A stretch of DNA of 64,000 bases, from positions 2,384-66,383 of the forward strand of contig JAOAJC010000001.1 of assembly GCA_026414385.1 (NCBI GenBank). Direction: 5' to 3'. A program made the translations under genes and the position numbers. Source of the DNA: Candidatus Pacearchaeota archaeon (GTDB taxonomy: Archaea; Nanobdellota; Nanobdellia; Pacearchaeales; GW2011-AR1). Below, one piece after another: positions 19,577 through 38,649 of this stretch; position 1 is the stretch's first letter; every line of letters starts with the position of its first letter. The notes under the pieces are model-generated. The model made no database searches. It had not been told where the DNA came from and was given only the letters and a program-made list of their open reading frames with translations.

Positions 19577-21112
19577 ATGGGAAAAGAAGAGAGAATAAAG
19601 GCGATAACGCAATTGTATTATTCAAATCCAAAGGTTCTTGAAGCAATGATGATGTTTTCGATTGATAGGGAAGTTATTCCAAGATATTTTGAAATTTTTG
19701 GGAAAAGGCCTGACAAGATTCAATACCCTTCTGACATTCTTGGAATGGTGAAAAAAGGAGCAACCTCTTTTCATGTATCAGAAGAGTTGTGGAATGATGT
19801 TATGGCTTTAAGTTCTGATTTGAAAACGGAAGAGTTAAATGAGTTGAGAAAAGGATGGGATTTATTAATTGATGTAGATTCGCCTTTTCTTGATTTGTCA
19901 AAAATTGCAACAAAGTTATTATTAAATGCTTTAAAAGAACACGGAATTAAAAATTATGGATTAAAATTTTCTGGAAACAAAGGATTCCATATTATTGTTT
20001 CTAACAAGGCTTTTCCAAAAATTTATGATGGGAAGGAAACGAGAAAAATGTTTCCTGACTGGGCAAGAGCTATCTGTGAATATTTAACAAACTACATAAG
20101 AAAGGATTATTATTTGGAGGCAGGCAAAATATTAACAAACAGCGAAATAGAAAAAAACACTGGATTAAAGGAAGAGCCAAACATTATATGTAAAAAGTGT
20201 GGGAAAAAAGCGCGTGTTGGAGATTTGATTAATTTTAAATGTCCGGTGTGTAACATGGAAATATCAAGAAAAGATGTTAAGATAACAAAGAGAAAATTAA
20301 GATGTTTAAACGAAAAATGTGCAGGTTTTTTTGAAATCATAAATGAAAAAAAATATTATTATTGCGAGTATTGTAAAGAGAGGGATAATGAAAAAATGAA
20401 ATTAAATTCTGAAAAAAATCCTGAAAATTTTGAAGAATTAAGAGGAGTTAATGTTGAGAAGATTGCCAAATTAGATTTAGTGCTTGTTTCTCCAAGACAT
20501 TTATTTAGAATGCCATATTCTTTACATGAAAAGACGGCGCTTGCGAGCATTACAATAAAAGAGGAAGATATTGATAAGTTTATGCCGAGAGATGCAAATC
20601 CGTTAAGTGTGAAAATAATAGAGTTTATGCCAAACAATGAAGAAAATGAAGCAAAATATCTTTTGAGCAATGCAATAGAGTGGAAAAAAACGCAAGAAGA
20701 GACAAATGAAAATAGTTGGAAAAAAATTGATGAAAATGAATTTAGAGAGGTTGATTTTAGAAAAATAAAAGAAGAAATGTTTCCAGAATCTATAAAAAAA
20801 TTATTAAGAGGACTAAAAGACGGGAGAAAACGAGGGTTATTTGTATTAATTACTTTTTTGAGGGCGTTGAATTTTCCTGCAGATTATATAAATAAAAGAA
20901 TAAGAGAATGGAATAAATTGAATGACCCACCATTAAAAGAAGGGTATATTAAAGCACAAATTGATTGGCATCTAAAACAAAAGAAGAAAATATTACCACC
21001 CAATTATTCAAATGATGCATTTTATAAAGACATAGGATTAATTAATGAGATTCCTAAATTAAAAAACCCTCTTTCTGAGATTGCAAGAAAATTAAAGGAG
21101 AATAAAAAATAA
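19577..21112 (+). CDS. priS: DNA primase small (catalytic) subunit PriS with tandem Zn-ribbons and a C-terminal PriCT/PriL-CTD-like helical domain (possible fused primase)
   Basis: AEP catalytic motifs (DLLIDVDSPF, KFSGNKGFHIIV), eight Cys in two CxxC...CxxC ribbons, and a C-terminus GRKRGLFVLITFLRALNFPADYINKRIREWNKLNDPPLKEGYI matching the PriCT-1-type pattern. Confidence 0.75.
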   Translation: MGKEERIKAITQLYYSNPKVLEAMMMFSIDREVIPRYFEIFGKRPDKIQYPSDILGMVKKGATSFHVSEELWNDVMALSSDLKTEELNELRKGWDLLIDVDSPFLDLSKIATKLLLNALKEHGIKNYGLKFSGNKGFHIIVSNKAFPKIYDGKETRKMFPDWARAICEYLTNYIRKDYYLEAGKILTNSEIEKNTGLKEEPNIICKKCGKKARVGDLINFKCPVCNMEISRKDVKITKRKLRCLNEKCAGFFEIINEKKYYYCEYCKERDNEKMKLNSEKNPENFEELRGVNVEKIAKLDLVLVSPRHLFRMPYSLHEKTALASITIKEEDIDKFMPRDANPLSVKIIEFMPNNEENEAKYLLSNAIEWKKTQEETNENSWKKIDENEFREVDFRKIKEEMFPESIKKLLRGLKDGRKRGLFVLITFLRALNFPADYINKRIREWNKLNDPPLKEGYIKAQIDWHLKQKKKILPPNYSNDAFYKDIGLINEIPKLKNPLSEIARKLKENKK

Positions 21113-21184: not shown

Positions 21185-23011
21185 ATGCGTAAAAGAGGAT
21201 ATGTTATCAGCATAATAATTGTTTTTGCAATATTAATGGCAAACTTTTCAATTGCTGCAACTAATGAGAGTGAGGTAGTTAGTGTTGATAAGGCTTATAA
21301 ATGCCTAAATGAGCAAATTAAAAAAGTTGGTTCAAATATCGGATTCCAAGACGCGATTTTTGCACAGCTTGCAATTGGTTCAGTAAAAGAAACAAGAGAA
21401 AAAATTGAGAGCGAAAAAAGTTCTACTGAAAATTGTTGGCCAAAAGCAGGATGTAAGATAAAAGAAACAGCACAGGTAATGTTGGCTTATGATAGGGTAG
21501 GAAAGAGCACTTCTGAAATAAGAAAATGGCTAATGTCAAAAAATGCGAGCGCAAGTGAGTTAATATGGTTTTTAGAAATTGATATAACAAACAAAGAAGT
21601 TTCAACATGTAGTTTGAAATACGATGGAGTTCAATATAGCATAAAAGTAAATGAGGAACAAAAAATATCTGGGAATGCTGGAAATTGTTTTGTAATTGCG
21701 AATAATGGTTATATGTTAAGAGTTAGCAATAATTGTATTGGAAAAGAGTTTGAAATATCTTGCGACAAAGATTTTGTAACAGCTATGATTTATCAATCAA
21801 GTACTGGAAAAACATTATTTATTCCGCCAAAAGCGACAGGCGCATCTGGTGGCGGGACAACAAAAGAAAAAGCTATTTCGCAATGTTTTAAGACAACAGG
21901 AGCAGGGTGCGATTATGAAGGGACATTATGGGCAGTCCTTGCTCTTGAAAAATTGGGCGAGGAGACAGATGCATTTTTACCATACCTTTATGCATTTGCT
22001 GATTCTAATAAAAGATATTTTCCATCTGCATTTTTGTACATGATTACAAGTGGTGAGGACCAATATGATTCTATAATTTCTTTGCAAAAACAAGGAAAAT
22101 ATTGGGAAATTGCGGGAAGTCCTTATAATAAATATTATGATAGCGCACTGGCGTTAATGGCATTAAGCAAAACGACATCGCAAGAGGCAGAAAACGCAAA
22201 AGCAAATTTATTAACAATACAAACTCCTGATGGGTGTTGGAATAATAACAATATAAGAGATAGCGGATTTATATTATATGCAGGGTTTACGAAGAGTGTT
22301 GGGAGAGAGGGTGGAGGAGAGGTTCCAAAATGCACTGCACCATTTTCATGTACAGGTTTATTTGATTGTGAAAAAGCTGGTGGGACAAGACAATATAATT
22401 ATGATTGTTCATCAGAGGGGGCTACAAAGATATGCTGTTCAATAAGTGTTGTTGAAGAAACTTGTAGTAAAAAGGGAGGGGTGTTATGTGGTGCAAATGA
22501 ACAATGCACTGGTAGAACAGAACCGTCAAAAGATGGAAGTTGTTGTATGAGTGGTTTTTGTGAAGAAATCCCGGTTGTAGAGGACTTGTGTAGTAAAGCG
22601 GGAGGGACGTGTAAATTTGTGTGTGAGGAAGGGGAAGAAAAAAGTAGCGAAACATGCGCAAACACAGAAGAAGTTTGTTGTGTTAAAAAAGGAACAAGCA
22701 TTTGGTTTTGGATTGTATTACTAATAATATTAATTGCACTAACAATAGTCGGGATTGTTTATAGAAATCAGCTAAGATTATTTTGGTTTAAAATTTGGCC
22801 AAAAATAAAAGAGAAATTCATGGGAAAGAAAGTTGAGAGTAAAGCTATGCCTACAACGCAACCAACAACAAAAGCCCCTATTATGACGCCACAAAGAATG
22901 ATGCCAAGGCCAGCTTATCCAATATCGCAAAGAAGTCCGGGAATAGCAAAATCTTCAAAGGAAAAAGAAATAGAAGAAACATTAAGAAAACTAAAAGAGA
23001 TGGGAAAATAA
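21185..23011 (+). CDS. Secreted membrane-anchored surface protein with a toroid-like domain and three Cys-rich modules
   Basis: N-terminal signal/TM. The N-terminal alpha-repeat domain has a QW-like motif (LLTIQTPDGCWNNN). Three tandem Cys-rich modules (C..GG..C......CC) precede a single TM (IWFWIVLLIILIALTIVGIVY) and a basic/Pro-rich cytoplasmic tail. Confidence 0.6.
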   Translation: MRKRGYVISIIIVFAILMANFSIAATNESEVVSVDKAYKCLNEQIKKVGSNIGFQDAIFAQLAIGSVKETREKIESEKSSTENCWPKAGCKIKETAQVMLAYDRVGKSTSEIRKWLMSKNASASELIWFLEIDITNKEVSTCSLKYDGVQYSIKVNEEQKISGNAGNCFVIANNGYMLRVSNNCIGKEFEISCDKDFVTAMIYQSSTGKTLFIPPKATGASGGGTTKEKAISQCFKTTGAGCDYEGTLWAVLALEKLGEETDAFLPYLYAFADSNKRYFPSAFLYMITSGEDQYDSIISLQKQGKYWEIAGSPYNKYYDSALALMALSKTTSQEAENAKANLLTIQTPDGCWNNNNIRDSGFILYAGFTKSVGREGGGEVPKCTAPFSCTGLFDCEKAGGTRQYNYDCSSEGATKICCSISVVEETCSKKGGVLCGANEQCTGRTEPSKDGSCCMSGFCEEIPVVEDLCSKAGGTCKFVCEEGEEKSSETCANTEEVCCVKKGTSIWFWIVLLIILIALTIVGIVYRNQLRLFWFKIWPKIKEKFMGKKVESKAMPTTQPTTKAPIMTPQRMMPRPAYPISQRSPGIAKSSKEKEIEETLRKLKEMGK

Positions 23012-23063
23012 ATTGAGAGAACATAAAAGATAATAATAAAAAGGTTAAAAATTAATTAATTTT

Positions 23064-23996
23064 ATGAAAAAGATTGTGCTTTTAGTATTTTTTGTTTTTC
23101 TATCTAGCAGTGTGTTCGCCATAAGCGTTGATATAAAAAATAATTATTTACCAAGGCAAACAGTTATAGCGAAGATATCTGGTGAGGTTTTAGATATTTT
23201 AACAAAAGATAATATTCAATTCAGGAGAGGACATGTTGCGATTCCATTAGAACATGATTTAAAAAAAATAGGGGAAGAGTATTATATTTGGTTTATAACT
23301 CCATTTTTAGAGAACAACTATACGATTATAATAAAAAATATTGCTACAACTGTTGGCGGTTTTGTGAAAAGAATAGATTATGAAAAAAATTTCTCTGTGA
23401 TTGGAAATGCGAGCTATTCAATAAAGCCAGGTTTTGTTTATGCGACAAAAGATTTTGAAATAGCAGTGTTATTATATGAAGATGAAAGAAAGCAAATAAA
23501 AGTTAATTTTTTAGATGAACAGGAGATTGTTTTAAAGCCAGGAAATAATTTATTAAAATTTTCAATAGGAAGCATAAATGAGAGTGGATTTTATAACTTG
23601 ACAATAGGAGAGTATAATGTTCCAGCATACATAATTCCAAACAAGACATTTTATAAAAAGATAAATGAAACAAATGTTACGGCAAAAAACATCATTATTG
23701 AATATGAAATTAAAAATAAGACAAAAATAAACGAGACAAAAAAATTTGAAGTGTATTGTTATGAATATCCTGGGAAAATATGTGGAAATGAAGAAATTTG
23801 TGATGGTGAGACAAGAGAAACAATTGACGGATTTTGTTGTATTGGAACATGTAAGGGAAAAGAAAAGCAAAGTTCTGCATTATGGGGGTATTTATTAATT
23901 ATTGTTGTGGTTGCAATTTTAGGATATATTGGATGGAAATATTATAAAACAAAAGAAGAAAGAAAAAATATATTGCAAAAAAATGTGGCAAAATAA
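23064..23996 (+). CDS. Secreted surface protein with a Cys-rich juxtamembrane module and C-terminal TM anchor
   Basis: Signal peptide MKKIVLLVFFVFLSSSVFA. Module CYEYPGKICGNEEICDGETRETIDGFCCIGTCKG aligns with the modules of the upstream gene, then a TM and a KKTKEERKN tail. Confidence 0.55.
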   Translation: MKKIVLLVFFVFLSSSVFAISVDIKNNYLPRQTVIAKISGEVLDILTKDNIQFRRGHVAIPLEHDLKKIGEEYYIWFITPFLENNYTIIIKNIATTVGGFVKRIDYEKNFSVIGNASYSIKPGFVYATKDFEIAVLLYEDERKQIKVNFLDEQEIVLKPGNNLLKFSIGSINESGFYNLTIGEYNVPAYIIPNKTFYKKINETNVTAKNIIIEYEIKNKTKINETKKFEVYCYEYPGKICGNEEICDGETRETIDGFCCIGTCKGKEKQSSALWGYLLIIVVVAILGYIGWKYYKTKEERKNILQKNVAK

Positions 23997-24544: not shown

Positions 24545-25225
24545 TTAAATCCTTCTCAAAATGAGATAAATAAGAATTAAAACAAAAATAATCAAAAATG
24601 CGTAAAAAAAATAAAACCACAATTTTAGTTTGTGGGTTGTTTGAGTATTTGTTTTTTTATTGAGATGGATTTTTTCGTTGCTTTTCGGTTGTTCTTCGTC
24701 TATTTTTTTTGGCATCTCTTCTTTTAGTGGAACGAAATCAGAAATAGAAGTTGTTAATTTTGGTGATTCGGATTTGGAAAAAGAATCTAATGATTGAGTT
24801 GGGGAGGAATTTGTTGTTTTTGATTCTTGTTTTTTTTCATTTGGTAAAATTGTTATCGGATTGCAAACTTCTGAAAAAGAGGAAGAGTTTGTTTTTCTTA
24901 ATCTCGCACAAATATTTGTTGCTCCGACATAATATGATTTAATCTTAAACTCTTTTGTTTTTGGAAAAACTTCTTTTAGATAATAGAATGGGTTGTTCCA
25001 TTTACCATCATAATAGATTTCGGAAAATTCTTTTGAATCATCATTTATAAATATTTTAACATCATAATTATTTGTTATAGAGGAAGATGTTGAAATAGAA
25101 ACAGAAAAGCTTTCATTAACGATTGATGATGATGGAGATATAAATTGAAATTCTAATGAAGATGATAGATTAATGGAAATTATCAAAATAATTAAATAAA
25201 GAACATTAATAACCATAGCTTTCAT
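24545..25225 (-). CDS. Ser/Thr-rich secreted protein with N-terminal signal and C-terminal TM anchor
   Basis: Start refined to MKAMVINVLYLIILIISINL (signal). Ser-rich ectodomain and a C-terminal TM LWFYFFYAFLIIFVLILIYLIL. Immediately downstream of the nuclease gene on the same strand. Confidence 0.45.
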   Translation of the reverse strand: MKAMVINVLYLIILIISINLSSSLEFQFISPSSSIVNESFSVSISTSSSITNNYDVKIFINDDSKEFSEIYYDGKWNNPFYYLKEVFPKTKEFKIKSYYVGATNICARLRKTNSSSFSEVCNPITILPNEKKQESKTTNSSPTQSLDSFSKSESPKLTTSISDFVPLKEEMPKKIDEEQPKSNEKIHLNKKTNTQTTHKLKLWFYFFYAFLIIFVLILIYLILRRI

Positions 25226-25952
25226 AGTGAGCAATTCCTCCGTTGTTATCAAATAGATATAAGCTATCCCTATCATTATTCCATATGTCAGTTTTTGAAT
25301 TCCAAAAAATATCTGTTGAATTATCTTTACCTATATTAGAATGGAGAGTAATTTTTGAAAAACTAATGTTTTTGAATGAATAGATCTTTCTACTCTCGTC
25401 CTTTATTGTAAAGCCAGTCATTGAAATGTTGCAATTGTTTATTATTATTATTTTTTCTTCTTTCGGGTTTATGTCTGTGCTAAAACAATTATAATAAATA
25501 GAAGGTTTCCATATTCCCAAATGATTTTTAATTGCGTTTTTTTCTGCATTTGAAAATAATTTTAGCTCTGATTCTTGAACAAGAAATTTTGATGCAAGGC
25601 CAAGTTCAACAATCCTTAAATTTAAGTATTCGGGAACATAAATTCTTGCAAGATATCTGTTATATTTATCTATGTCAATTATTTCTATATTGACTGACTT
25701 ATTTTCATAAGATTTAAGAAAACCTATTGCTAAATTTGATATTTGTAGATTTTTTTCTGGGGAGTTGATATTAATGAGACGGATTGTTCTATTATCTTCT
25801 AAAATTAGAGTATCGCCATCAATAACTCTTGAAATTACCACACTTTCTATTTTTTTATTTTTTTCGGAAATTAGAAGTGAAGAAAGGTGAAAAAGTGCAA
25901 AAACAAATAAAGTTATAAAAAATGCTAATAAAAAAGCGTATTTTTTATTCAT
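25206..25952 (-). CDS. Membrane-anchored extracellular thermonuclease (staphylococcal nuclease fold) fused to a lamin-tail domain (LTD)
   Basis: N-terminal TM anchor. SNase motifs VIDGDTLILEDNRTIRLININSPE, DKYNRYLARIY and KNHLGIWKP. C-terminal region ...IINNCNISMTGFTIKD...IWNNDRDSLYLFDNNGGIAHYESYGY fits the LTD pattern (W-N-N-x-G-D...L.D..G..VD...Y). Confidence 0.7.
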   Translation of the reverse strand: MNKKYAFLLAFFITLFVFALFHLSSLLISEKNKKIESVVISRVIDGDTLILEDNRTIRLININSPEKNLQISNLAIGFLKSYENKSVNIEIIDIDKYNRYLARIYVPEYLNLRIVELGLASKFLVQESELKLFSNAEKNAIKNHLGIWKPSIYYNCFSTDINPKEEKIIIINNCNISMTGFTIKDESRKIYSFKNISFSKITLHSNIGKDNSTDIFWNSKTDIWNNDRDSLYLFDNNGGIAHYESYGY

Positions 25953-26516: not shown

Positions 26517-27449
26517 ATGGTAAAAGAATATGATTTTATTATCATTGGAGCAGGGGTTGCGGGTTTGTCTGCTGCGATGTATGCTGGTAGATTAGGACTC
26601 AAAACATTATGTCTTGGTGCAAGTTCTGTTGAAGAGAAAGCAATTGGCGGCATAATAACAACAACAGATGATATTGAAAATTTTCCAGGATACATAAAAA
26701 TTTCAGGAGTGGAATTAGCTGAGAAAATAGAAAAACACGCCAGAGAATACAATGTTGAAATAAAAGAAGAAAGAGTTGAAAAAATTGTAAAAAAAGAAAA
26801 AAAATTTATTATAAAAACTAAAAAAAATGATTATGTTGCGAAAACAATATTAATCGCGACAGGAACTGAGAGAAGAAAATTAGAAGCAAAAAATGCTGAT
26901 AAATTTGAGAGAAAAGGTGTTGTATATTGTGCATTGTGTGACGCAGGATTATTTAAAGATAAAATCGTGGCAATTGTTGGTGGTTCAAATGCTGCTGCCA
27001 AAGATGCGTTGCTCTTGGCAAATAAAGCAAAAAAAGTTTATATTATTTACAGAAAAGAAAAATTGAGGGCAGAGGAAGATTATAGGAAAAAAGTAGAGGC
27101 AAATCAAAAGATAGAGATAATAAACAATGCAACGATTTTAGAGATTAGTGGAAAAGAAAAAGTTGAAGAGCTTGTTTTAGATAGGGAATATAAAGGAAGC
27201 AATAAATTAAAAGTTGATGGGGTTTTTGTTGCAATTGGGGGGAATGCAGCTTCTGAAATTGCGATTGAGTTGGGATTAGAATTAAATGAGAAAAATGAGA
27301 TAATAACAAACAAAAATTGTGAGACAAACATTGGTGGAGTTTATGCAGCAGGAGATGTAACTGATAGGGAATGGAAACAAGCGATAACTGCTGTTGCAGA
27401 GGGATGTATCGCGGCTTATTCTGCATTTAGATATTTAAGTAAAAGATAG
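26517..27449 (+). CDS. trxB: Thioredoxin-disulfide reductase
   Basis: FAD motif DFIIIGAGVAGLSAAMYAGR, redox-active CALCDAG, and NADPH motif GGSNAAAKDALLLA. Confidence 0.85.
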   Translation: MVKEYDFIIIGAGVAGLSAAMYAGRLGLKTLCLGASSVEEKAIGGIITTTDDIENFPGYIKISGVELAEKIEKHAREYNVEIKEERVEKIVKKEKKFIIKTKKNDYVAKTILIATGTERRKLEAKNADKFERKGVVYCALCDAGLFKDKIVAIVGGSNAAAKDALLLANKAKKVYIIYRKEKLRAEEDYRKKVEANQKIEIINNATILEISGKEKVEELVLDREYKGSNKLKVDGVFVAIGGNAASEIAIELGLELNEKNEIITNKNCETNIGGVYAAGDVTDREWKQAITAVAEGCIAAYSAFRYLSKR

Positions 27450-33046: not shown

Positions 33047-33745
33047 ATGAAAAAGAGAGGGGCGAGCAATATAGAGTTTATACTTGCATTTGTATTGTTT
33101 GTCGGATTTGTAGCAACGATTTTTTATTTTTTTAATCCTATTAGAAATGTTAATTATATGGAATCATCTTTAAACTATGTTATTGGAGCGATAGAGAAAA
33201 ATGTAACTAGTGAGATTGATGAAGTTGGGATATTAATTAAAGGTTCAAGTTCGGGGGGCAATATTGCAAAGGTTAAGATAAAAGACATTTCAAATGATAA
33301 AAAAGTTGATGCAAGAGATTATTATGGATTTCGATTTGATGCAAAAAGAAATGGTGAAGAAGTTTATATTGATTTAAAAAATAGAGGAACAAATAACAAT
33401 TTTATAATATTTAGGTTTAATGAGGAATTTAATGAGGAAACAATTTCTAGTGGCCAAGAAAGAGAATATACAATATCAACAAAAGATTCAAGAAAAATTG
33501 TTTCTGAAAAAAAAATAAAGCAATTAAGCGAGAGATACGCAAATAATTATTTAAAATTGAAAGAAGAACTAAAAATTCCTGCGAACATTGATTTTTCATT
33601 TTCGTTAGAATTGCAAGACAGAAAAATAGAAGTAACAAAAGATATTCCTGCAAGAGCAGAAGTATTTGCAAAGGGAAAATTAATTGAAGTATTAAAAGAA
33701 AATGAGGTGACTGAAACCGGATATTTAACAATAAGAATATGGTAA
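33047..33745 (+). CDS. Pilin-like/minor pilin protein (class III signal, Glu+5)
   Basis: MKKRGASNIEFILAFVLFVGFVATIFYFF. If cleaved after RG, Glu is at +5. Confidence 0.5.
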   Translation: MKKRGASNIEFILAFVLFVGFVATIFYFFNPIRNVNYMESSLNYVIGAIEKNVTSEIDEVGILIKGSSSGGNIAKVKIKDISNDKKVDARDYYGFRFDAKRNGEEVYIDLKNRGTNNNFIIFRFNEEFNEETISSGQEREYTISTKDSRKIVSEKKIKQLSERYANNYLKLKEELKIPANIDFSFSLELQDRKIEVTKDIPARAEVFAKGKLIEVLKENEVTETGYLTIRIW

Positions 33746-34167
33746 ATAAAAAAGGAATAGTTAGAATAATTGAAGCCAGTGTTGCAATATTAATTATATT
33801 GTCTGTAGTATTAGTGGTTTCTGAAAGAAAAAAATTGCAAATTGAGAGCGATTTAAGTGAGAGAATAACTCCATTGTTAGAAGAAATAGCAAAAAATGGG
33901 AGTATGAGAGAAGCGATAATAAGAGATAATGAAACGAATAATGATGCTGAAAATCTTGTTATGGATTTTTTGAAACAAAGAATAAAAGAGACATTTATAG
34001 GTTATAATGTAACAATATGTAACTATACTCTTGTTTGTGGATTAAGAACATATCCAACAGAAGCAAAAGGCAACATTTATTCTGGAGAGAGAGTGATTAG
34101 CACAACATTAGAAAATAGACAGTTCAATCCAAAAAAAATAAAGATTTTCTTATGGATTAAAAGATAA
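33739..34167 (+). CDS. Pilin-like protein (class III signal)
   Basis: MVNKKGIVRIIEASVAILIILSVVLVV. Confidence 0.45.
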   Translation: MVNKKGIVRIIEASVAILIILSVVLVVSERKKLQIESDLSERITPLLEEIAKNGSMREAIIRDNETNNDAENLVMDFLKQRIKETFIGYNVTICNYTLVCGLRTYPTEAKGNIYSGERVISTTLENRQFNPKKIKIFLWIKR

Positions 34168-34299: not shown

Positions 34300-35907
34300 A
34301 TGAAAAGAGAGGTTTTTTTTATCGGATTTGTAATATTTATAATAACGTTTGCAAGCGCTATTTGCAATGATGAGAATCAGGTTATTTTAAGATTATACAG
34401 AGAGAATAACTCTCATGCGGCAATATGGTCAAATACAACTTATAGCGAAAAAGTGTGTTTTAATGATATTTTTGGACTAAATTATTCAGGAACAAATCCA
34501 CACGATTGTAATAGTGATAATAGTAATGTTGTTTTAAAGCTAAATCAAGAGTTTAATGCGCATGCTGCACTGCCAACTCTTCCAGATAGTGTTGTTGGAT
34601 TCCCAATAAAAGTTTGTTATAAGGGAGTAAAAAAATGTGAATTGTTTGATAATGATAATTGCAGAGCAAATCAGAAAGCAATTCTTTATTTTAATAGCGT
34701 GATTAACTCTCATCTTTCAAAAAATTATGGAGGGGATTTTACAAAAACATTGTGTTGTTATAGATATGATGCGATAATTCATCCGGAATGGTGTTTTGCA
34801 AATAACATTAGCAGTTGTGATAGATATAATAGTCAAACTAATTGCACTCAAGATTTATGTAATGCCTCATTAGTAGATCCAAATTGTCCTCTCGGAGCAA
34901 CTTGTAATTGTGCTTGGGAAAATAATCAATGCAAATTAAAAGTAATAACCACTCCTCCAGCCCCGCCATTTTGTTCTACTATAAATTCATGTGGAGATTA
35001 TAAAGAACAAAGTAAATGTTCTGAAGATATGTGTAACGTTTCTGGGACAGGATATAAGTGTGAGTGGAATATCGCAGATGGAAAGTGTGAGAAAGTTCAA
35101 ATCCCTGGATGGTGTTCTGTAATTAGTAGTTGTAGTAATTATACAACGCAAGCAAATTGTAGCGCGAATCCTTGTTTGGAGGGAAAAGCATGTTATTGGA
35201 ATAATAGTGTTTGTAAAGATTATAAAGCAGATGATAAATGTAGAATAAATAATATAACGAAATGTGCAAATTATGTGGACAAAGATCCGTGTAATGATGA
35301 TGCTTGTAATGTATCTATAATTGGTTGTTCTCCTAATCAGTTATGTTGGTGTGCTTGGGAAAATAATAAGTGTGAGAAAAGAGAAAAAGATAGAGAAGAA
35401 AAAAGAGATTTTTGCGATTATATAGATTCTTGTAGTGATTATGATACTTCAAATAAGTGCGAAAATGATAATTGTGGAATTGCAGATTATGATGAGAATT
35501 GTCCTATTGGTAGAGATTGTTCGTGTAAGTGGATAAGTAATGTTGGTTGTGGAGTATCATTTGAGAGTGGGGGAGGGAGTGGTGGCAGGATGCCTCCTGG
35601 TTCAGGTGGGTGGGGCAATCCAGGTTGCAAATATAATTGTACAATTAATACAAAACAAGGAGAGTGTAAAGAAGGATTTATGGATGTGATAGTAAATGCA
35701 GAAACTAGGATAATACAAGGATGTACAGGAGCAACAGGAAGTCCACTAGATTGTCAAACTAAAACAATAAAGGGAGTTCCGTGTGCATTAGCAGAAACAG
35801 AATTGCCTTTTTTTGAATTTTGGCAAATCCTCATTTCTATTGTGGGGATTGTATTTGTCTATTTGTTTTTATTAAAAAATTGGGAAAAAATAAAAAAGCA
35901 TATATAA
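34300..35907 (+). CDS. Secreted Cys-rich repeat protein (five ~40-aa C-x-x-Y/x-x-x-x-C-x-x-D-x-C-N-x-S...C-x-W-x-N-x-x-C modules) with C-terminal TM anchor
   Basis: Signal peptide. Repeats CDRYNSQTNCTQDLCNAS...CNCAWENNQCKLK, CGDYKEQSKCSEDMCNVS...CEWNIADGKCEKV, CSNYTTQANCSANPC...CYWNNSVCKDY, CANYVDKDPCNDDACNVS...CWCAWENNKCEKR, CSDYDTSNKCENDNCG...CSCKWISNVGCG. Many N-x-S/T sequons. Gly-rich linker and TM at the end. Confidence 0.6.
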   Translation: MKREVFFIGFVIFIITFASAICNDENQVILRLYRENNSHAAIWSNTTYSEKVCFNDIFGLNYSGTNPHDCNSDNSNVVLKLNQEFNAHAALPTLPDSVVGFPIKVCYKGVKKCELFDNDNCRANQKAILYFNSVINSHLSKNYGGDFTKTLCCYRYDAIIHPEWCFANNISSCDRYNSQTNCTQDLCNASLVDPNCPLGATCNCAWENNQCKLKVITTPPAPPFCSTINSCGDYKEQSKCSEDMCNVSGTGYKCEWNIADGKCEKVQIPGWCSVISSCSNYTTQANCSANPCLEGKACYWNNSVCKDYKADDKCRINNITKCANYVDKDPCNDDACNVSIIGCSPNQLCWCAWENNKCEKREKDREEKRDFCDYIDSCSDYDTSNKCENDNCGIADYDENCPIGRDCSCKWISNVGCGVSFESGGGSGGRMPPGSGGWGNPGCKYNCTINTKQGECKEGFMDVIVNAETRIIQGCTGATGSPLDCQTKTIKGVPCALAETELPFFEFWQILISIVGIVFVYLFLLKNWEKIKKHI

Positions 35908-35949: not shown

Positions 35950-38649
35950 ATGAATAAAAAAAGAGTGAGCGTTGTTTTTTGTTTTATATTCTTATTAGTT
36001 ATTATTAGTTTTGTTTCTGCATCTTTTAGTTTTAAAAATGAAAATTTGCAAAGAACATATGTTGGTGGAGAGATGATTAAGGGATTTATAAACATAAGTT
36101 TCTCAAATGAGAATGCACATAGTTTATTAACTAGTAATTTTAATGGAACAATAACATTAATTGAATTATTGAAAAAAAATAACTTTATCGAAAATAATGA
36201 TTACATATGTTCTAGAAAAAAATGCGAAATTGATTATAAAGCAGACGAAGAAATAAACAGTTTAAATTTAAATGATGATGATAGTAAAATAATTGGCTTT
36301 AAATTAACTGGAAATAATGTAGAAATAAGTTCGTTAAAATTATCTTTGGCAACAAATGCAGATGCTTCGTGCGAGAGAGAAATTTTGATAGATGTTCTTG
36401 ATAGAAACGAGAGTTTTATACAGAGCACAAAAAAAACAAAGGATATTTGTGAAGAAGAGTATTTTGGTTGTTTTGACGAAAACGAAGATACAAGTTATGT
36501 AATTATATCAGAATCAGGATATTGTGAAAAGATTGAATTGCCGCCAGCACCTGCATATATGATAGGAGCAAAAGTAAAAAATGGAACAGCGACAGCAAAA
36601 TTAACAATGAAATTATATGATGGTTCATGGAATGAGTTGGGTGAATGTGAATTACCAAAAAACTCACAAAATATTGAAAAACTGACATGCCAAGTTAATT
36701 ATTCAAATAAAGAAAAGAAAGAATTTATGATTTGCATTTCTTCTTCATCAGAAGACGCAGAATATCAGATAAGGAGTGAAGAATCTAGAGAAACATGCGG
36801 AACGGATAATATGGGTAGCTCTTATAATATTGATTTTGAGATATTTGCAAAAAAAGTTAAATTTGCTCCGATAGGGATATTATCAATAAATGAGACGACT
36901 TTTTCAGAACAAAATGATGGAAATAACTTAAATGATTATATAGATAGTTATATAGAAGAAAAATATGAAAGAAATTGTTCAAATGGGTGCATAATTCCGT
37001 TTAGGATTTATGGGAATAGTCAGACAATTACAAAAGAAAGTGCAACATTAAAATATAGAGAAGGTAGTGGTAGAGTGTTGCGTACGACAGGTGCTATTTA
37101 TTCTATTGAAAAAGAAGATGCAAAAATAACTACAAAAAGAGCATTAAACATAAATATTGAAAAGGCAGGTTTTTTCATACCTCTCTTATCAACAGCAAAA
37201 CAATTATTAATTTATTTGGACAATAAGATGATATTGCCAAAAGCTATTCCGATAAATGTTACAAAAGGATTTGATTTTGATATTTCACCAAAAGAAGTTA
37301 GCATTGGTATAGTAACTTATTTTAATATAATAACAACTGAGAATATAACTTCGTCCAAGTGGAATTTTGGAGATGGAACAATTGAAACATTTGATGGAAA
37401 AGGAGCCGTACATAAATATGTTGGATTACCAATTGGAACAAATGAGTATAGTGTTGAAGTAATCGTAACAAGAAAAGATGGAGTAATATCAAAAAAAATA
37501 TTTAAAATAGGGATTGAGCCATTGTCAGAAAGCGCAAAAACCTTGCTTAATATATCAAATTCAAAAATAACAAAATTAAACTCAAAAATAAACTCTTATC
37601 CTGAGTGGATTGGAGATTTAATAAAAACAAAATTGAATTTTGATAATATGAATTCTGTTATTACGAAAGGAAAAATTGCTATTTTGAATGCTTCAACTAA
37701 TGATGATTATATGGCAATAATAAATCAAATGTTAGGATTAGAAATTCCCGATGAAATAATTTCAAAAGAGATTGGAAAGGATATTAATCCTGTTGTTGGA
37801 TTTGAAAAAATAGAAACGTCTGCCATTGAACAGATATCAAATAAAAAGGTAAGCTCAGATAAAAAAGCAGAACTAAAAGAAGCGATTATTAAATGGATGG
37901 CGAGAAATGCAAACATGAAATTAGAGTATGAAAAGATATTTCAGATAGATGAAAATGGGGAAAAAATTTTACTTAGTAAATTGGTGATAGATGTTAATCC
38001 AAAAGAAAAAGCTTATTTGATAATAAATTATCCACTCAACAGCATAAAATTCAATGGAAATTATTCTGAAAGTGCAATTGGTTCTTTTAGTTATATCCCT
38101 ATAAAAGAACCAAAAATAATAGAATTTGCAATTATGGATAATGTTAATGTTGGGGATTTAGGTATTTATCTATCGCCAACAATTGATAAAGTTTATGTAC
38201 AAGCAGAAGTTGTTAAGGAAGAATTTAATTGGAGTAGATTTATAACGTGGATGATTGTTTTGTTCGTAATTGCTTTTATAATATACATTGTAATGCAAGA
38301 ATGGTACAAAAGATATTACGAAAAATCATTATTTAAAAATAAAGATGACTTGTATAATTTAATTAATTTTATTTATAATGCAAAAAAAGCAGGAATGAAA
38401 GATGAAGAATTAAGAAATAAGTTGAGTGATGCAAAATGGAAAGGCGAACAAATAACATATGCTCTAAGAAAAGCAGAAGGAAAAAGAACTGGGATGTGGG
38501 AAATACCAATATTTAAATATTGGGAACAAATGGAAATAAAAGCAGAGATTGCAAAAAGAGTGGGTGAGCAAAAAACAAGCGCGCAACAACAGTCAAATTC
38601 AAAAATGCATAATATAAAAACTGGGACACAACAAAGTTTATTAAAATAA
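35950..38649 (+). CDS. Large secreted surface protein with a PKD domain and C-terminal TM anchor
   Basis: Signal peptide. PKD motif WNFGDGTIETFDGKGAVHKYVGLPIGTNEYSVEVIVTRKDG. TM FITWMIVLFVIAFIIYIVMQEWY. 899 aa. Confidence 0.6.
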   Translation: MNKKRVSVVFCFIFLLVIISFVSASFSFKNENLQRTYVGGEMIKGFINISFSNENAHSLLTSNFNGTITLIELLKKNNFIENNDYICSRKKCEIDYKADEEINSLNLNDDDSKIIGFKLTGNNVEISSLKLSLATNADASCEREILIDVLDRNESFIQSTKKTKDICEEEYFGCFDENEDTSYVIISESGYCEKIELPPAPAYMIGAKVKNGTATAKLTMKLYDGSWNELGECELPKNSQNIEKLTCQVNYSNKEKKEFMICISSSSEDAEYQIRSEESRETCGTDNMGSSYNIDFEIFAKKVKFAPIGILSINETTFSEQNDGNNLNDYIDSYIEEKYERNCSNGCIIPFRIYGNSQTITKESATLKYREGSGRVLRTTGAIYSIEKEDAKITTKRALNINIEKAGFFIPLLSTAKQLLIYLDNKMILPKAIPINVTKGFDFDISPKEVSIGIVTYFNIITTENITSSKWNFGDGTIETFDGKGAVHKYVGLPIGTNEYSVEVIVTRKDGVISKKIFKIGIEPLSESAKTLLNISNSKITKLNSKINSYPEWIGDLIKTKLNFDNMNSVITKGKIAILNASTNDDYMAIINQMLGLEIPDEIISKEIGKDINPVVGFEKIETSAIEQISNKKVSSDKKAELKEAIIKWMARNANMKLEYEKIFQIDENGEKILLSKLVIDVNPKEKAYLIINYPLNSIKFNGNYSESAIGSFSYIPIKEPKIIEFAIMDNVNVGDLGIYLSPTIDKVYVQAEVVKEEFNWSRFITWMIVLFVIAFIIYIVMQEWYKRYYEKSLFKNKDDLYNLINFIYNAKKAGMKDEELRNKLSDAKWKGEQITYALRKAEGKRTGMWEIPIFKYWEQMEIKAEIAKRVGEQKTSAQQQSNSKMHNIKTGTQQSLLK

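Follow-up and report, generated by a model that had tools for sequence, protein, structure and literature searches.

Receptor stalks made of disulfide-rich repeat modules are a hallmark of eukaryotic cell-surface proteins, and to our knowledge such stalk modules have seldom been described in archaea. The familiar examples are the EGF-like and TNF-receptor cysteine-rich domains, which span 30-40 residues, carry six cysteines and occur extracellularly, in variable number, between the transmembrane (TM) helix and the ligand-binding ectodomain of type I proteins. Two neighbouring genes of a Candidatus Pacearchaeota archaeon encode predicted surface proteins whose stalk modules are alike in each of these respects. 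Their features within the window, which is the whole stretch of 64,000 nucleotides that was analysed, are as follows.

21185..23011, + strand: gene for the 608-aa protein (ORF list).
21272..22294, + strand: ectodomain of the 608-aa protein (aa ~30-370), an alpha/alpha toroid with a beta-sandwich insertion (aa ~120-240).
22331..22438, + strand: stalk module M1, CTAPFSCTGLFDCEKAGGTRQYNYDCSSEGATKICC (aa 383-418), with framework C-C-C-C-CC.
22463..22561, + strand: stalk module M2 of the 608-aa protein, CSKKGGVLCGANEQCTGRTEPSKDGSCCMSGFC (aa 427-459), the sole true copy in that protein according to family profiles.
22589..22681, + strand: stalk module M3, CSKAGGTCKFVCEEGEEKSSETCANTEEVCC (aa 469-499), with framework C-x6-C-x3-C-x10-C-x6-CC and net charge -4.
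22700..22762, + strand: TM helix of the 608-aa protein, IWFWIVLLIILIALTIVGIVY (aa 506-526), from sequence; the AF2 helix spans 505-525.
22958..23005, + strand: conserved C-terminal cytoplasmic helix of the 608-aa protein, KEKEIEETLRKLKEMG, from the family alignment; the AF2 helix spans 592-607.
23064..23996, + strand: gene for the 310-aa protein (ORF list).
23757..23852, + strand: M2 of the 310-aa protein, CYEYPGKICGNEEICDGETRETIDGFCCIGTC (aa 232-263), containing all six Cys of that protein.
23877..23936, + strand: TM helix of the 310-aa protein (aa 272-291), from sequence; it begins 8 residues past the last M2 Cys.

Both open reading frames are those claimed by the initial annotation, and both products, as judged from sequence, start with a signal-peptide-like segment and have a TM helix towards the C-terminus. 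The 608-aa protein, which is identical (100%) to the NCBI entry 'hypothetical protein N3D20_00190 [Candidatus Pacearchaeota archaeon]', has the layout of a type I membrane protein: a signal peptide, an alpha/alpha-toroid ectodomain, three Cys-rich stalk modules, a TM helix, a Pro-rich cytoplasmic tail and a C-terminal helix. There are at least 259 full-length homologues of this protein, and its AF2 model has a pLDDT of 89.1. The TM helix is followed, on the cytoplasmic side, by a basic stretch. Beyond it, the Pro-rich tail is predicted to be disordered (pLDDT <50 in the AF2 model) and leads to the C-terminal helix, whose family consensus is DKEMEETLKKLKEMSK; a similar C-terminus is present in the distant relatives P0170 and P0204. 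The 310-aa protein also has a type I layout, composed of a signal peptide, a beta-rich ectodomain rich in sequons (10 N-x-S/T observed versus 2.1 expected), a single M2, a TM helix and a short basic tail. There are 31 homologues of this protein. Pfam, NCBIfam and PDB sequence searches yielded no match for it, and neither did a search of the PDB with its family profile.

The pairing of the two genes is conserved across DPANN archaea. Among 75 species-level DPANN loci that extend at least 1,000 nt downstream, the 310-aa family gene is located directly downstream of the 608-aa family gene in 55, with a median gap of 37 nt, and in most of the remaining loci it lies within 4 kb. At least 254 species-level DPANN genomes carry this surface-protein pair. 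Members of the group are believed to live in attachment to other cells, which makes a conserved pair of surface proteins a candidate for cell-contact or uptake functions.

It had been proposed that a Cys-rich module of the 608-aa protein aligns position by position with one in the 310-aa protein, and this proposal holds. The module strings that were quoted are present at aa 427-461 and aa 232-265, respectively, and their spacing is nearly identical, reading C-x7-C-x5-C-x11-CC-x4-C in the 608-aa copy with a final gap of x3 in the 310-aa copy. Each of these two final gaps is frequent in both families. When the M2 profiles of the two families are compared by hhalign, they align with a probability of 98.5% and an E-value of 3.9e-15, and M2 is present in every homologue examined (120/120 for the 608-aa family and 31/31 for the 310-aa family). 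The M2 copies of the two proteins are homologous, far past what chance would produce. Three other elements of the initial annotation need revision. The 608-aa protein was said to have three copies of the module, but it has one, flanked by M1 and M3 with their C-C-C-C-CC framework. The proposed pattern fits the 310-aa copy literally, but the 608-aa copy departs from it by reading CC-x-x-G-x-C. Finally, the module does lie directly before the TM helix in the 310-aa protein, separated by an 8-residue linker, but in the 608-aa protein M3 intervenes, and only the complete stalk can be said to adjoin the TM helix.

M2 is a genuine autonomous six-Cys mini-domain of ~33 residues, predicted from sequence to be extracytoplasmic, that is unnamed in current domain libraries. 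The family as defined in this analysis has no database entry. There are 495 copies supporting the consensus [TS]-C-x-E-x-x-G-x-[IVL]-C-x3-[EQ]-x-C-x-G-x4-[SA]-x-D-[GTS]-x-C-C-[LIV]-G-x-C. The family signature C-x7-C-x5-C-x11/12-CC-x3/4-C is present in both window copies, and its characteristic non-Cys positions are Gly three residues before Cys2, Glu or Gln two residues before Cys3, Gly two residues after Cys3, and Asp-Gly before the CC doublet. All six cysteines are present in 464 of the 495 copies, the other 31 being truncated alignments. Natural M2 variants include no paired loss of cysteines from which disulfide pairing could be deduced; every complete copy keeps all six. Outside the cysteines, conservation reaches 99% for G, 85% for D and 78% for E/Q.

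An exhaustive search with the M2 profile, which had been suggested as a check, recovered many additional members: 542 protein clusters (50% identity) match at E<=1e-3 and 19 at E<=1e-10, and the feared match to a low-complexity pattern was not borne out. Clusters that carry a name are for the most part from Pacearchaeota. There are 1 to 7 copies of M2 per matching protein, and the clusters mostly have either tandem arrays or an M2 directly ahead of a TM helix. The last M2 is located no more than 30 residues ahead of a TM helix in 65 of 147 representative proteins and in 49 of the 63 that have a single copy, and 94 of the 147 have a hydrophobic segment at the N-terminus. In over half of the representatives M2 is not near a TM helix, and many of these are tandem arrays in secreted multidomain proteins. 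Domains found beside the arrays are Cupredoxin, CARDB, beta-helix and F5/8-C, and one of the proteins is named as a beta-mannanase. When the two proteins and the neighbouring ones were scanned with Pfam and NCBIfam, M2 had no match at threshold, and a PDB sequence-profile search with M2 returned only scytovirin (E 1.3), with no fold match attributable to the module. In the literature we found no account of M2, of the 608-aa/310-aa pair or of archaeal defensin-like domains.

All cysteines of both proteins (28 in the 608-aa protein and six in the 310-aa protein, each an even number) fall after the signal peptide and before the TM helix and, given the inferred type I topology, would all be extracytoplasmic. 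In AF2 models the stalk consists of compact beta-rich modules (pLDDT 88-97), with a pLDDT of 88-95 across the stalk of the full-length model and 92.0 for the stalk alone. The pTM of the stalk modelled alone is only 0.54, as expected of beads on a string. To this extent the notion of a Cys-rich juxtamembrane stalk stands. However, M2 is not specific to juxtamembrane positions, and the stalk contains two types of module. The order in the 608-aa protein is M1, M2, M3 and then the TM helix, which places M2 one module farther out than its counterpart in the 310-aa protein. Three to 8 modules separate ectodomain and TM helix in distant relatives that share this toroid; those matching it at E 3e-26 and 7e-42 have 5 to 8, in place of the three seen here.

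M1 and M3 are related to one another (hhalign 86%, E 4.7e-6), whereas either compared with M2 gives an hhalign probability of only 1-9%, and the three share nothing but a 'C-x-K-x-G-G' start. The six cysteines of M1 are invariant among 120 homologues, and M1 alone has no Pfam or PDB sequence match. We also considered whether M2 could be a rearranged beta-defensin and rejected this, as Cys3 and the CC doublet are 11 residues apart rather than 16-17 and the hhalign comparison of M2 with M3 is not significant.

For M3, as opposed to M2, the appropriate comparison is with beta-defensins and big defensins (PF13841, PF00711 and PF14862). Beta-defensins have the disulfide connectivity 1-5, 2-4, 3-6. 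M3 resembles them in its six-Cys framework (C-x6-C-x3/4-C-x9/10-C-x5/6-CC, with spacing 6-3-10-6-0 in the window), its GG-x-C motif and the Glu after its third Cys. In the predicted structure, its three strands form an antiparallel sheet and are placed as in beta-defensins. When aligned, all six cysteines match those of CpoBD13 and hBD3, whereas the alignment with helianthamide is partial. Scored against Defensin_beta_2 (PF13841), whose gathering cutoff is 22.2 bits, the M3 of the window reaches 12.7 bits (E 0.18); the best orthologous M3 reaches E 8.6e-6, or ~27 bits by extrapolation from the E-value ratio. Defensin_beta_2 is matched by 62 of 90 orthologous M3 modules, and a shuffle of everything but the cysteines leaves 1 of 90. 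On the other side, M3 is acidic (net charge averaging -6.2 over about 120 copies) whereas beta-defensins are cationic, and it is a domain within the stalk of a membrane protein rather than a secreted peptide. An acidic internal domain of this sort is not a cationic secreted host-defence peptide. In addition, M3 is archaeal whereas the trans-defensins described are from animals.

One possibility, which we advance tentatively and with more doubt than conviction, is that M3, and in a looser sense M1, genuinely adopts the beta-defensin fold with its 1-5/2-4/3-6 disulfides, which would make it the first trans-defensin-type domain in a prokaryote. Trans-defensins have been described from animals only (PMC11561630). 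If the assignment is true, hundreds of DPANN species would possess the M3-type fold, used as an acidic structural element instead of a cationic peptide, and M2 would stand alongside it as a further disulfide-rich fold without a solved counterpart. The occurrence of M3 outside animals is unexpected: it offers either a clean instance of convergence, in sequence framework and fold alike, or a hint as to how trans-defensins first arose. Should the fold be shared with animal beta-defensins or big defensins by descent and not by convergence, the source of the trans-defensin superfamily would have to be reconsidered, as it is currently regarded as restricted to animals.

The best reading of the stalk modules, and in our judgement probably the correct one, is that they are disulfide-stabilised spacers that raise the ectodomains off the membrane. 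Both proteins would be exported via the Sec pathway and their signal peptides cleaved off. Each module would then be oxidised to three disulfides, yielding a small bead that is rigid and resists proteases. Strings of one to eight of these, either of the M2 type or of the second, beta-defensin-like type (M1/M3), would fix the distance from the membrane of a functional ectodomain, which would be, for the 608-aa protein, the alpha/alpha toroid and, for the 310-aa protein, a beta-rich domain bearing glycans. M2 itself lies in the stalk next to the membrane in both of these co-encoded type I proteins. We infer the formation and connectivity of the disulfides, the rigidity of the modules, their role as spacers and any interaction between the two proteins.

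M2 might instead be mainly a small binding module, comparable to carbohydrate-binding domains of the hevein or CBM1 type or to toxin-like adhesion modules, that contacts the S-layer, glycans or the host cell of a presumably episymbiotic archaeon. The secreted proteins in which 2 to 7 tandem M2 copies accompany beta-helix plus F5/8 type C, CARDB or Cupredoxin domains, the beta-mannanase among them, are consistent with this proposal, and arrays so far from TM helices suggest that M2 may do more than spacing. The strong conservation of its non-Cys positions could likewise stem from a binding surface, and not from fold constraints alone. In the 310-aa family the module has an aromatic-rich start, Y-C-Y-E-[YF]-P-G, but these aromatics are missing from the 608-aa family (consensus S-C-x-x-K-G-G), and thus no common binding surface is evident. 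Weak matches to PhTx neurotoxins (PF08116, Toxin_29), which like M2 are small, disulfide-rich and have a CC doublet, occur for 30 of 80 M2 modules. However, the best of these has E 1.4e-3, the cutoff is never reached, the window's own copy has no match, and a spider neurotoxin is a wholly different context. Known CBM or lectin families are unmatched at threshold, and copy number differs across orthologous architectures in a manner that is spacer-like. We therefore regard a primary role in binding as unlikely.

Perhaps the juxtamembrane M2 serves as an interface that pairs the two co-encoded proteins in a heteromeric surface complex. The conserved adjacency of the genes (55/75 loci, median gap 37 nt) would suit such an arrangement, as would the fact that an M2 near the membrane is the sole element common to both proteins. 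Yet M2 is also found in many proteins beyond the pair and in tandem within single chains, and the copies in the two proteins differ in height by one module, all of which makes this explanation improbable.

Another proposal is that the module cysteines bind metal, as Zn or Fe-S, rather than forming disulfides. Reducing habitats are home to many Pacearchaeota, which are often anaerobic, and a CxxC motif search of the window revealed no DsbA- or VKOR-like oxidative-folding gene, its only hits being a cytoplasmic-type thioredoxin-reductase-like ORF (26517-27449) and zinc-ribbon-like proteins. Both points also count against disulfide-stabilised spacers. However, the modules lack CxxC and CxxH pairs, every cysteine is predicted to be extracytoplasmic, and CC doublets with six Cys per ~33 residues are typical of disulfide-rich folds. 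Moreover, the adjoining M3 matches beta-defensins, which are disulfide-bonded. Metal binding is accordingly very improbable. A chance or low-complexity Cys pattern, which might be suspected of short, Cys-rich modules when the literal pattern matches only one of two copies, is refuted by the agreement of independent family profiles (E 3.9e-15), by retention of M2 in 151/151 homologues and by 542 clusters with defined non-Cys consensus positions.

With M2 defined, more than 500 uncharacterised protein clusters become easier to annotate, and small, stable, disulfide-rich scaffolds from archaea could serve protein engineering.

The ectodomain that the larger stalk would hold up has the alpha/alpha toroid fold of class II terpene cyclases such as squalene-hopene cyclase, with profile scores that fall far below cutoff (12.7 bits versus 26.1 for SQHop_cyclase_C and 13.8 versus 431 for TIGR01507). 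It has neither the DxDD catalytic motif of terpene cyclases nor the CGEQ thioester of thioester-domain toroids, and it is unlike both in being extracellular, disulfide-rich (as predicted) and interrupted by a beta-sandwich insertion. With respect to the modules themselves, knottins of the inhibitor cystine knot type have the connectivity 1-4, 2-5, 3-6, with the third disulfide threading a ring; their CC doublet is in most cases at Cys3-4, whereas that of M2 is at Cys4-5. EGF-like and TNF-receptor domains also differ from M2, whose Cys framework is C-x7-C-x5-C-x11-CC-x3/4-C; Pfam models of these domains give no match at threshold and only stray weak matches in 1 to 2 of 80 M2 modules. Foldseek matches to the whole stalk include the death receptors DR4 and DR5, both weak and elongated. 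EGF-like and TNF-receptor stalks are eukaryotic, whereas here two other types of module appear to build the stalks of a surface-protein pair in DPANN archaea.

The two genes reside on the same strand, separated by 52 nucleotides, in an AT-rich window (~30% GC), and the housekeeping neighbours of the pair encode PCNA, a primase small-subunit-like protein, a secreted SNase-LTD nuclease and a tRNA-editing domain protein. From their sequences, both products are read as type I membrane proteins, wherein a signal-peptide-like N-terminal segment is present and a single C-terminal TM helix is followed by a basic stretch. There are three Cys-rich stalk modules in the 608-aa protein, designated M1, M2 and M3 in that order, and M2 is the type shared with the 310-aa protein. 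The features are as follows.

21185-23011, + strand: 608-aa ORF, identical to 'hypothetical protein N3D20_00190 [Candidatus Pacearchaeota archaeon]'
22331-22438, + strand: M1, beta-defensin-like Cys framework, matching M3 by profile comparison only
22589-22681, + strand: M3, beta-defensin-like Cys framework, with beta-defensin likeness in sequence and predicted fold
22958-23005, + strand: C-terminal cytoplasmic amphipathic helix of the 608-aa family, strongly conserved in the family alignment A1, after a disordered Pro/Arg-rich tail
23064-23996, + strand: 310-aa ORF, identical to N3D20_00195
24545-25276 and 25206-25952, - strand: small membrane-anchored protein and secreted SNase plus lamin-tail-domain nuclease, directly downstream of the pair

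The initial annotation described three copies of one juxtamembrane module in the 608-aa protein, an observation that is real but miscounted. Both strings that it quoted are found, one in the 608-aa protein (aa 427-461) and the other in the 310-aa protein (aa 232-265), and they align residue for residue, with C-x7-C-x5-C-x11-CC in both, then x4-C in the former and x3-C in the latter. Of the three six-Cys modules that the 608-aa protein does contain, M2 in the middle is alone in belonging to the shared type. M1, at aa 383-418, has a C-C-C-C-CC framework in common with M3, at aa 469-499; the two are related to each other (hhalign 86%, E 4.7e-6), and neither exhibits significant similarity to M2 (hhalign probability 1-9%). 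The count was probably misled by the C-x-K-x-G-G start common to the modules. The literal regular expression proposed for the module matches the 310-aa copy, but the 608-aa copy does not fit it. Similarly, a position immediately before the TM helix describes the 310-aa protein, where M2 is 8 residues ahead of the helix, but M3 intervenes in the 608-aa protein.

M2 occurs once per protein in 120/120 homologues of the 608-aa protein and 31/31 of the 310-aa protein, and the separately built profiles of the two families match each other (hhalign probability 98.5%, E 3.9e-15). Thus, M2 is no chance pattern, and fortuitous resemblance of the copies is refuted. The module also has many further members and therefore survives the refutation test set by the initial annotation: a profile from 80 modules searched against 1.84 billion representative proteins matched 542 of them at E<=1e-3 and 19 at E<=1e-10, and in many of these proteins it matched several separate stretches. 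Two to 7 copies are present in 84 of the 147 best new matches, and 28/147 also carry M1/M3-type modules. The last copy lies <=30 residues ahead of a predicted TM helix in 65/147, including 49 of the 63 single-copy proteins. All six Cys are kept in 464 of 495 copies, the remainder being truncated alignments; together the copies give the consensus [TS]-C-x-E-x-x-G(99%)-x-[IVL]-C-x3-[EQ](78%)-x-C-x-G(78%)-x4-[SA]-x-D(85%)-[GTS]-x-CC-[LIV]-G(74%)-x-C. Pfam partner domains in these proteins include Cupredoxin, CARDB, beta-helix and F5/8 type C, and the Pfam scan gave no match on the module itself. The source names are few and mostly Pacearchaeota. Two M2-containing representatives, P0159 and P0303, carry CPR labels, Patescibacteria (MBU4315476.1) and Nealsonbacteria (PIU44051.1); the latter falls in the same 90% cluster as a Pacearchaeota protein, and mis-binning or transfer between the two ultrasmall groups is therefore possible.

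No search yielded an at-threshold match for M2. Its nearest likenesses are the spider-toxin family Toxin_29, matched weakly by 30 of 80 copies (best E 1.4e-3), and scytovirin, the only PDB sequence match (E 1.3). The model predicts four short beta-strands, with a conserved D-G at the hairpin turn before the CC doublet. We treat M2 as an undescribed, putatively disulfide-rich mini-domain; as a domain family it is new, but its general kind is already known.

With each GTDB species represented by a single genome, a scan gave 254 contigs that encode a relative of the 608-aa protein; the 80 loci retrieved all bear the label of a DPANN lineage or just that of uncultured archaea. Downstream sequence is long enough in 75 loci. 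In 55 of these, a gene of the 310-aa family is located directly 3' on the same strand (median gap 37 nt), and in most of the others it is within 4 kb. Therefore, Pacearchaeota-type genomes carry the pair as a conserved unit.

The 608-aa ectodomain (21272-22294) is an extracellular squalene-cyclase / thioester-domain-like alpha/alpha toroid with a beta-sandwich insertion. It lacks DxDD and CGEQ motifs, and it carries an invariant CWNNNNIRD motif. Pacearchaeota are not known to synthesise lipids, and a role for the toroid in binding isoprenoid lipids is thus a speculation worth testing. On the cytoplasmic side, a disordered Pro-rich tail ends in a conserved helix (family consensus DKEMEETLKKLKEMSK), to which a cytoplasmic partner may dock. 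A recognisably similar end is present in the representatives P0170 and P0204, with a looser likeness in P0184. The 310-aa ectodomain is beta-rich and contains 10 N-x-S/T sequons versus 2.1 expected; profile searches detected no relatives of this protein in Pfam or PDB.

The toroid has 10 of the 28 Cys of the 608-aa protein and the three modules have the other 18, which places all of them in the ectodomain, and all six of the 310-aa protein belong to M2. We infer that the stalk modules form disulfides; no Dsb-like gene is present within the window. A model of the stalk alone (131 aa, 67 sequences) gave a pLDDT of 92.0 and a pTM of only 0.54, and thus the modules are confident but their mutual orientation is loosely defined. 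In distant relatives with the same toroid, the TM helix is preceded by five to eight modules of the M3 and M2 types, compared with three here (e.g. P0184, E 3e-26; P0204, E 7e-42). This variable bead number, together with strict Cys conservation, extracytoplasmic placement and compact predicted folds, fits a modular disulfide-stabilised spacer. The best-supported reading, which we consider somewhat probable, is that M2 and the beta-defensin-like modules would be rigid disulfide beads that determine how high the ectodomains stand over the membrane; the cell itself probably makes contact with other cells. This stalk interpretation is reasonable but unproven. A binding module is an unlikely alternative; the conserved non-Cys positions and the tandem arrays adjoining glycan-related domains suggest it, and it is weakened in that the two families lack a common aromatic or charged surface. 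A putative pairing interface between the two co-encoded proteins, compatible with a stalk, is less likely still, and metal binding by the module Cys is highly improbable.

Several other loci in the window deserve mention. A 535-aa protein (34300-35907, +) is built from repeats of another Cys-rich module of ~40 aa (e.g. CSTINSCGDYKEQSKCSEDMCNVSGTGYKCEWNIADGKC). It contains 50 Cys, starts with a signal peptide, is anchored by a TM helix at the C-terminus and has no Pfam match. Its gene adjoins genes with pilin-like N-termini (33047-34167) and one for an 899-aa PKD-like surface protein (35950-38649). The primase small-subunit-like protein (19577-21112, +) is unusually long (511 aa), with a Cys-rich zinc-ribbon-like insertion (aa ~205-270) and a C-terminal extension. 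The small membrane-anchored protein downstream of the pair has no family match, and the two listed ORFs there overlap by ~70 nt.

The whole 608-aa-family profile has only three matches among PDB sequences; all three are weak, fall on M3 and involve peptides of the beta-defensin fold. When M3 is searched alone, 7/7 PDB matches are of this fold: CpoBD13 (E 0.019), hBD3, helianthamide, an engineered hBD, platypus DLP-1, a big defensin and hBD6. There are 62 of 90 orthologous M3 modules that individually match Defensin_beta_2 in Pfam (best E 8.6e-6), with 21/90 matching Defensin_beta and 13/90 Defensin_big. These counts collapse to 1/90, 2/90 and 2/90, respectively, when every Cys is fixed and the other residues are shuffled, and therefore neither Cys spacing nor composition accounts for the signal by itself. 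Against Defensin_beta_2, the M3 of the window scores 12.7 bits, under the 22.2-bit cutoff, and M1 alone gave no defensin match in Pfam or PDB searches. Trans-defensins are known from animals only, and bacteria have cis-defensins only (PMC11561630). Our literature searches returned no report of defensin-like domains in archaea. The beta-defensin-like module flanking M2 is a more surprising point than M2 itself. In sequence and predicted fold, M3 resembles a beta-defensin. The printed full-length alignments with CpoBD13 and hBD3 pair all six Cys, the GG-x-C motif and a Glu after Cys3. The likeness in fold comes from a predicted rather than a solved structure, compared by searches that give no list of superposed residues. 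However, M3 differs from beta-defensins in being acidic (net -4 for the M3 of the window, with a mean of about -6) and in being a domain within a membrane protein rather than a secreted peptide.
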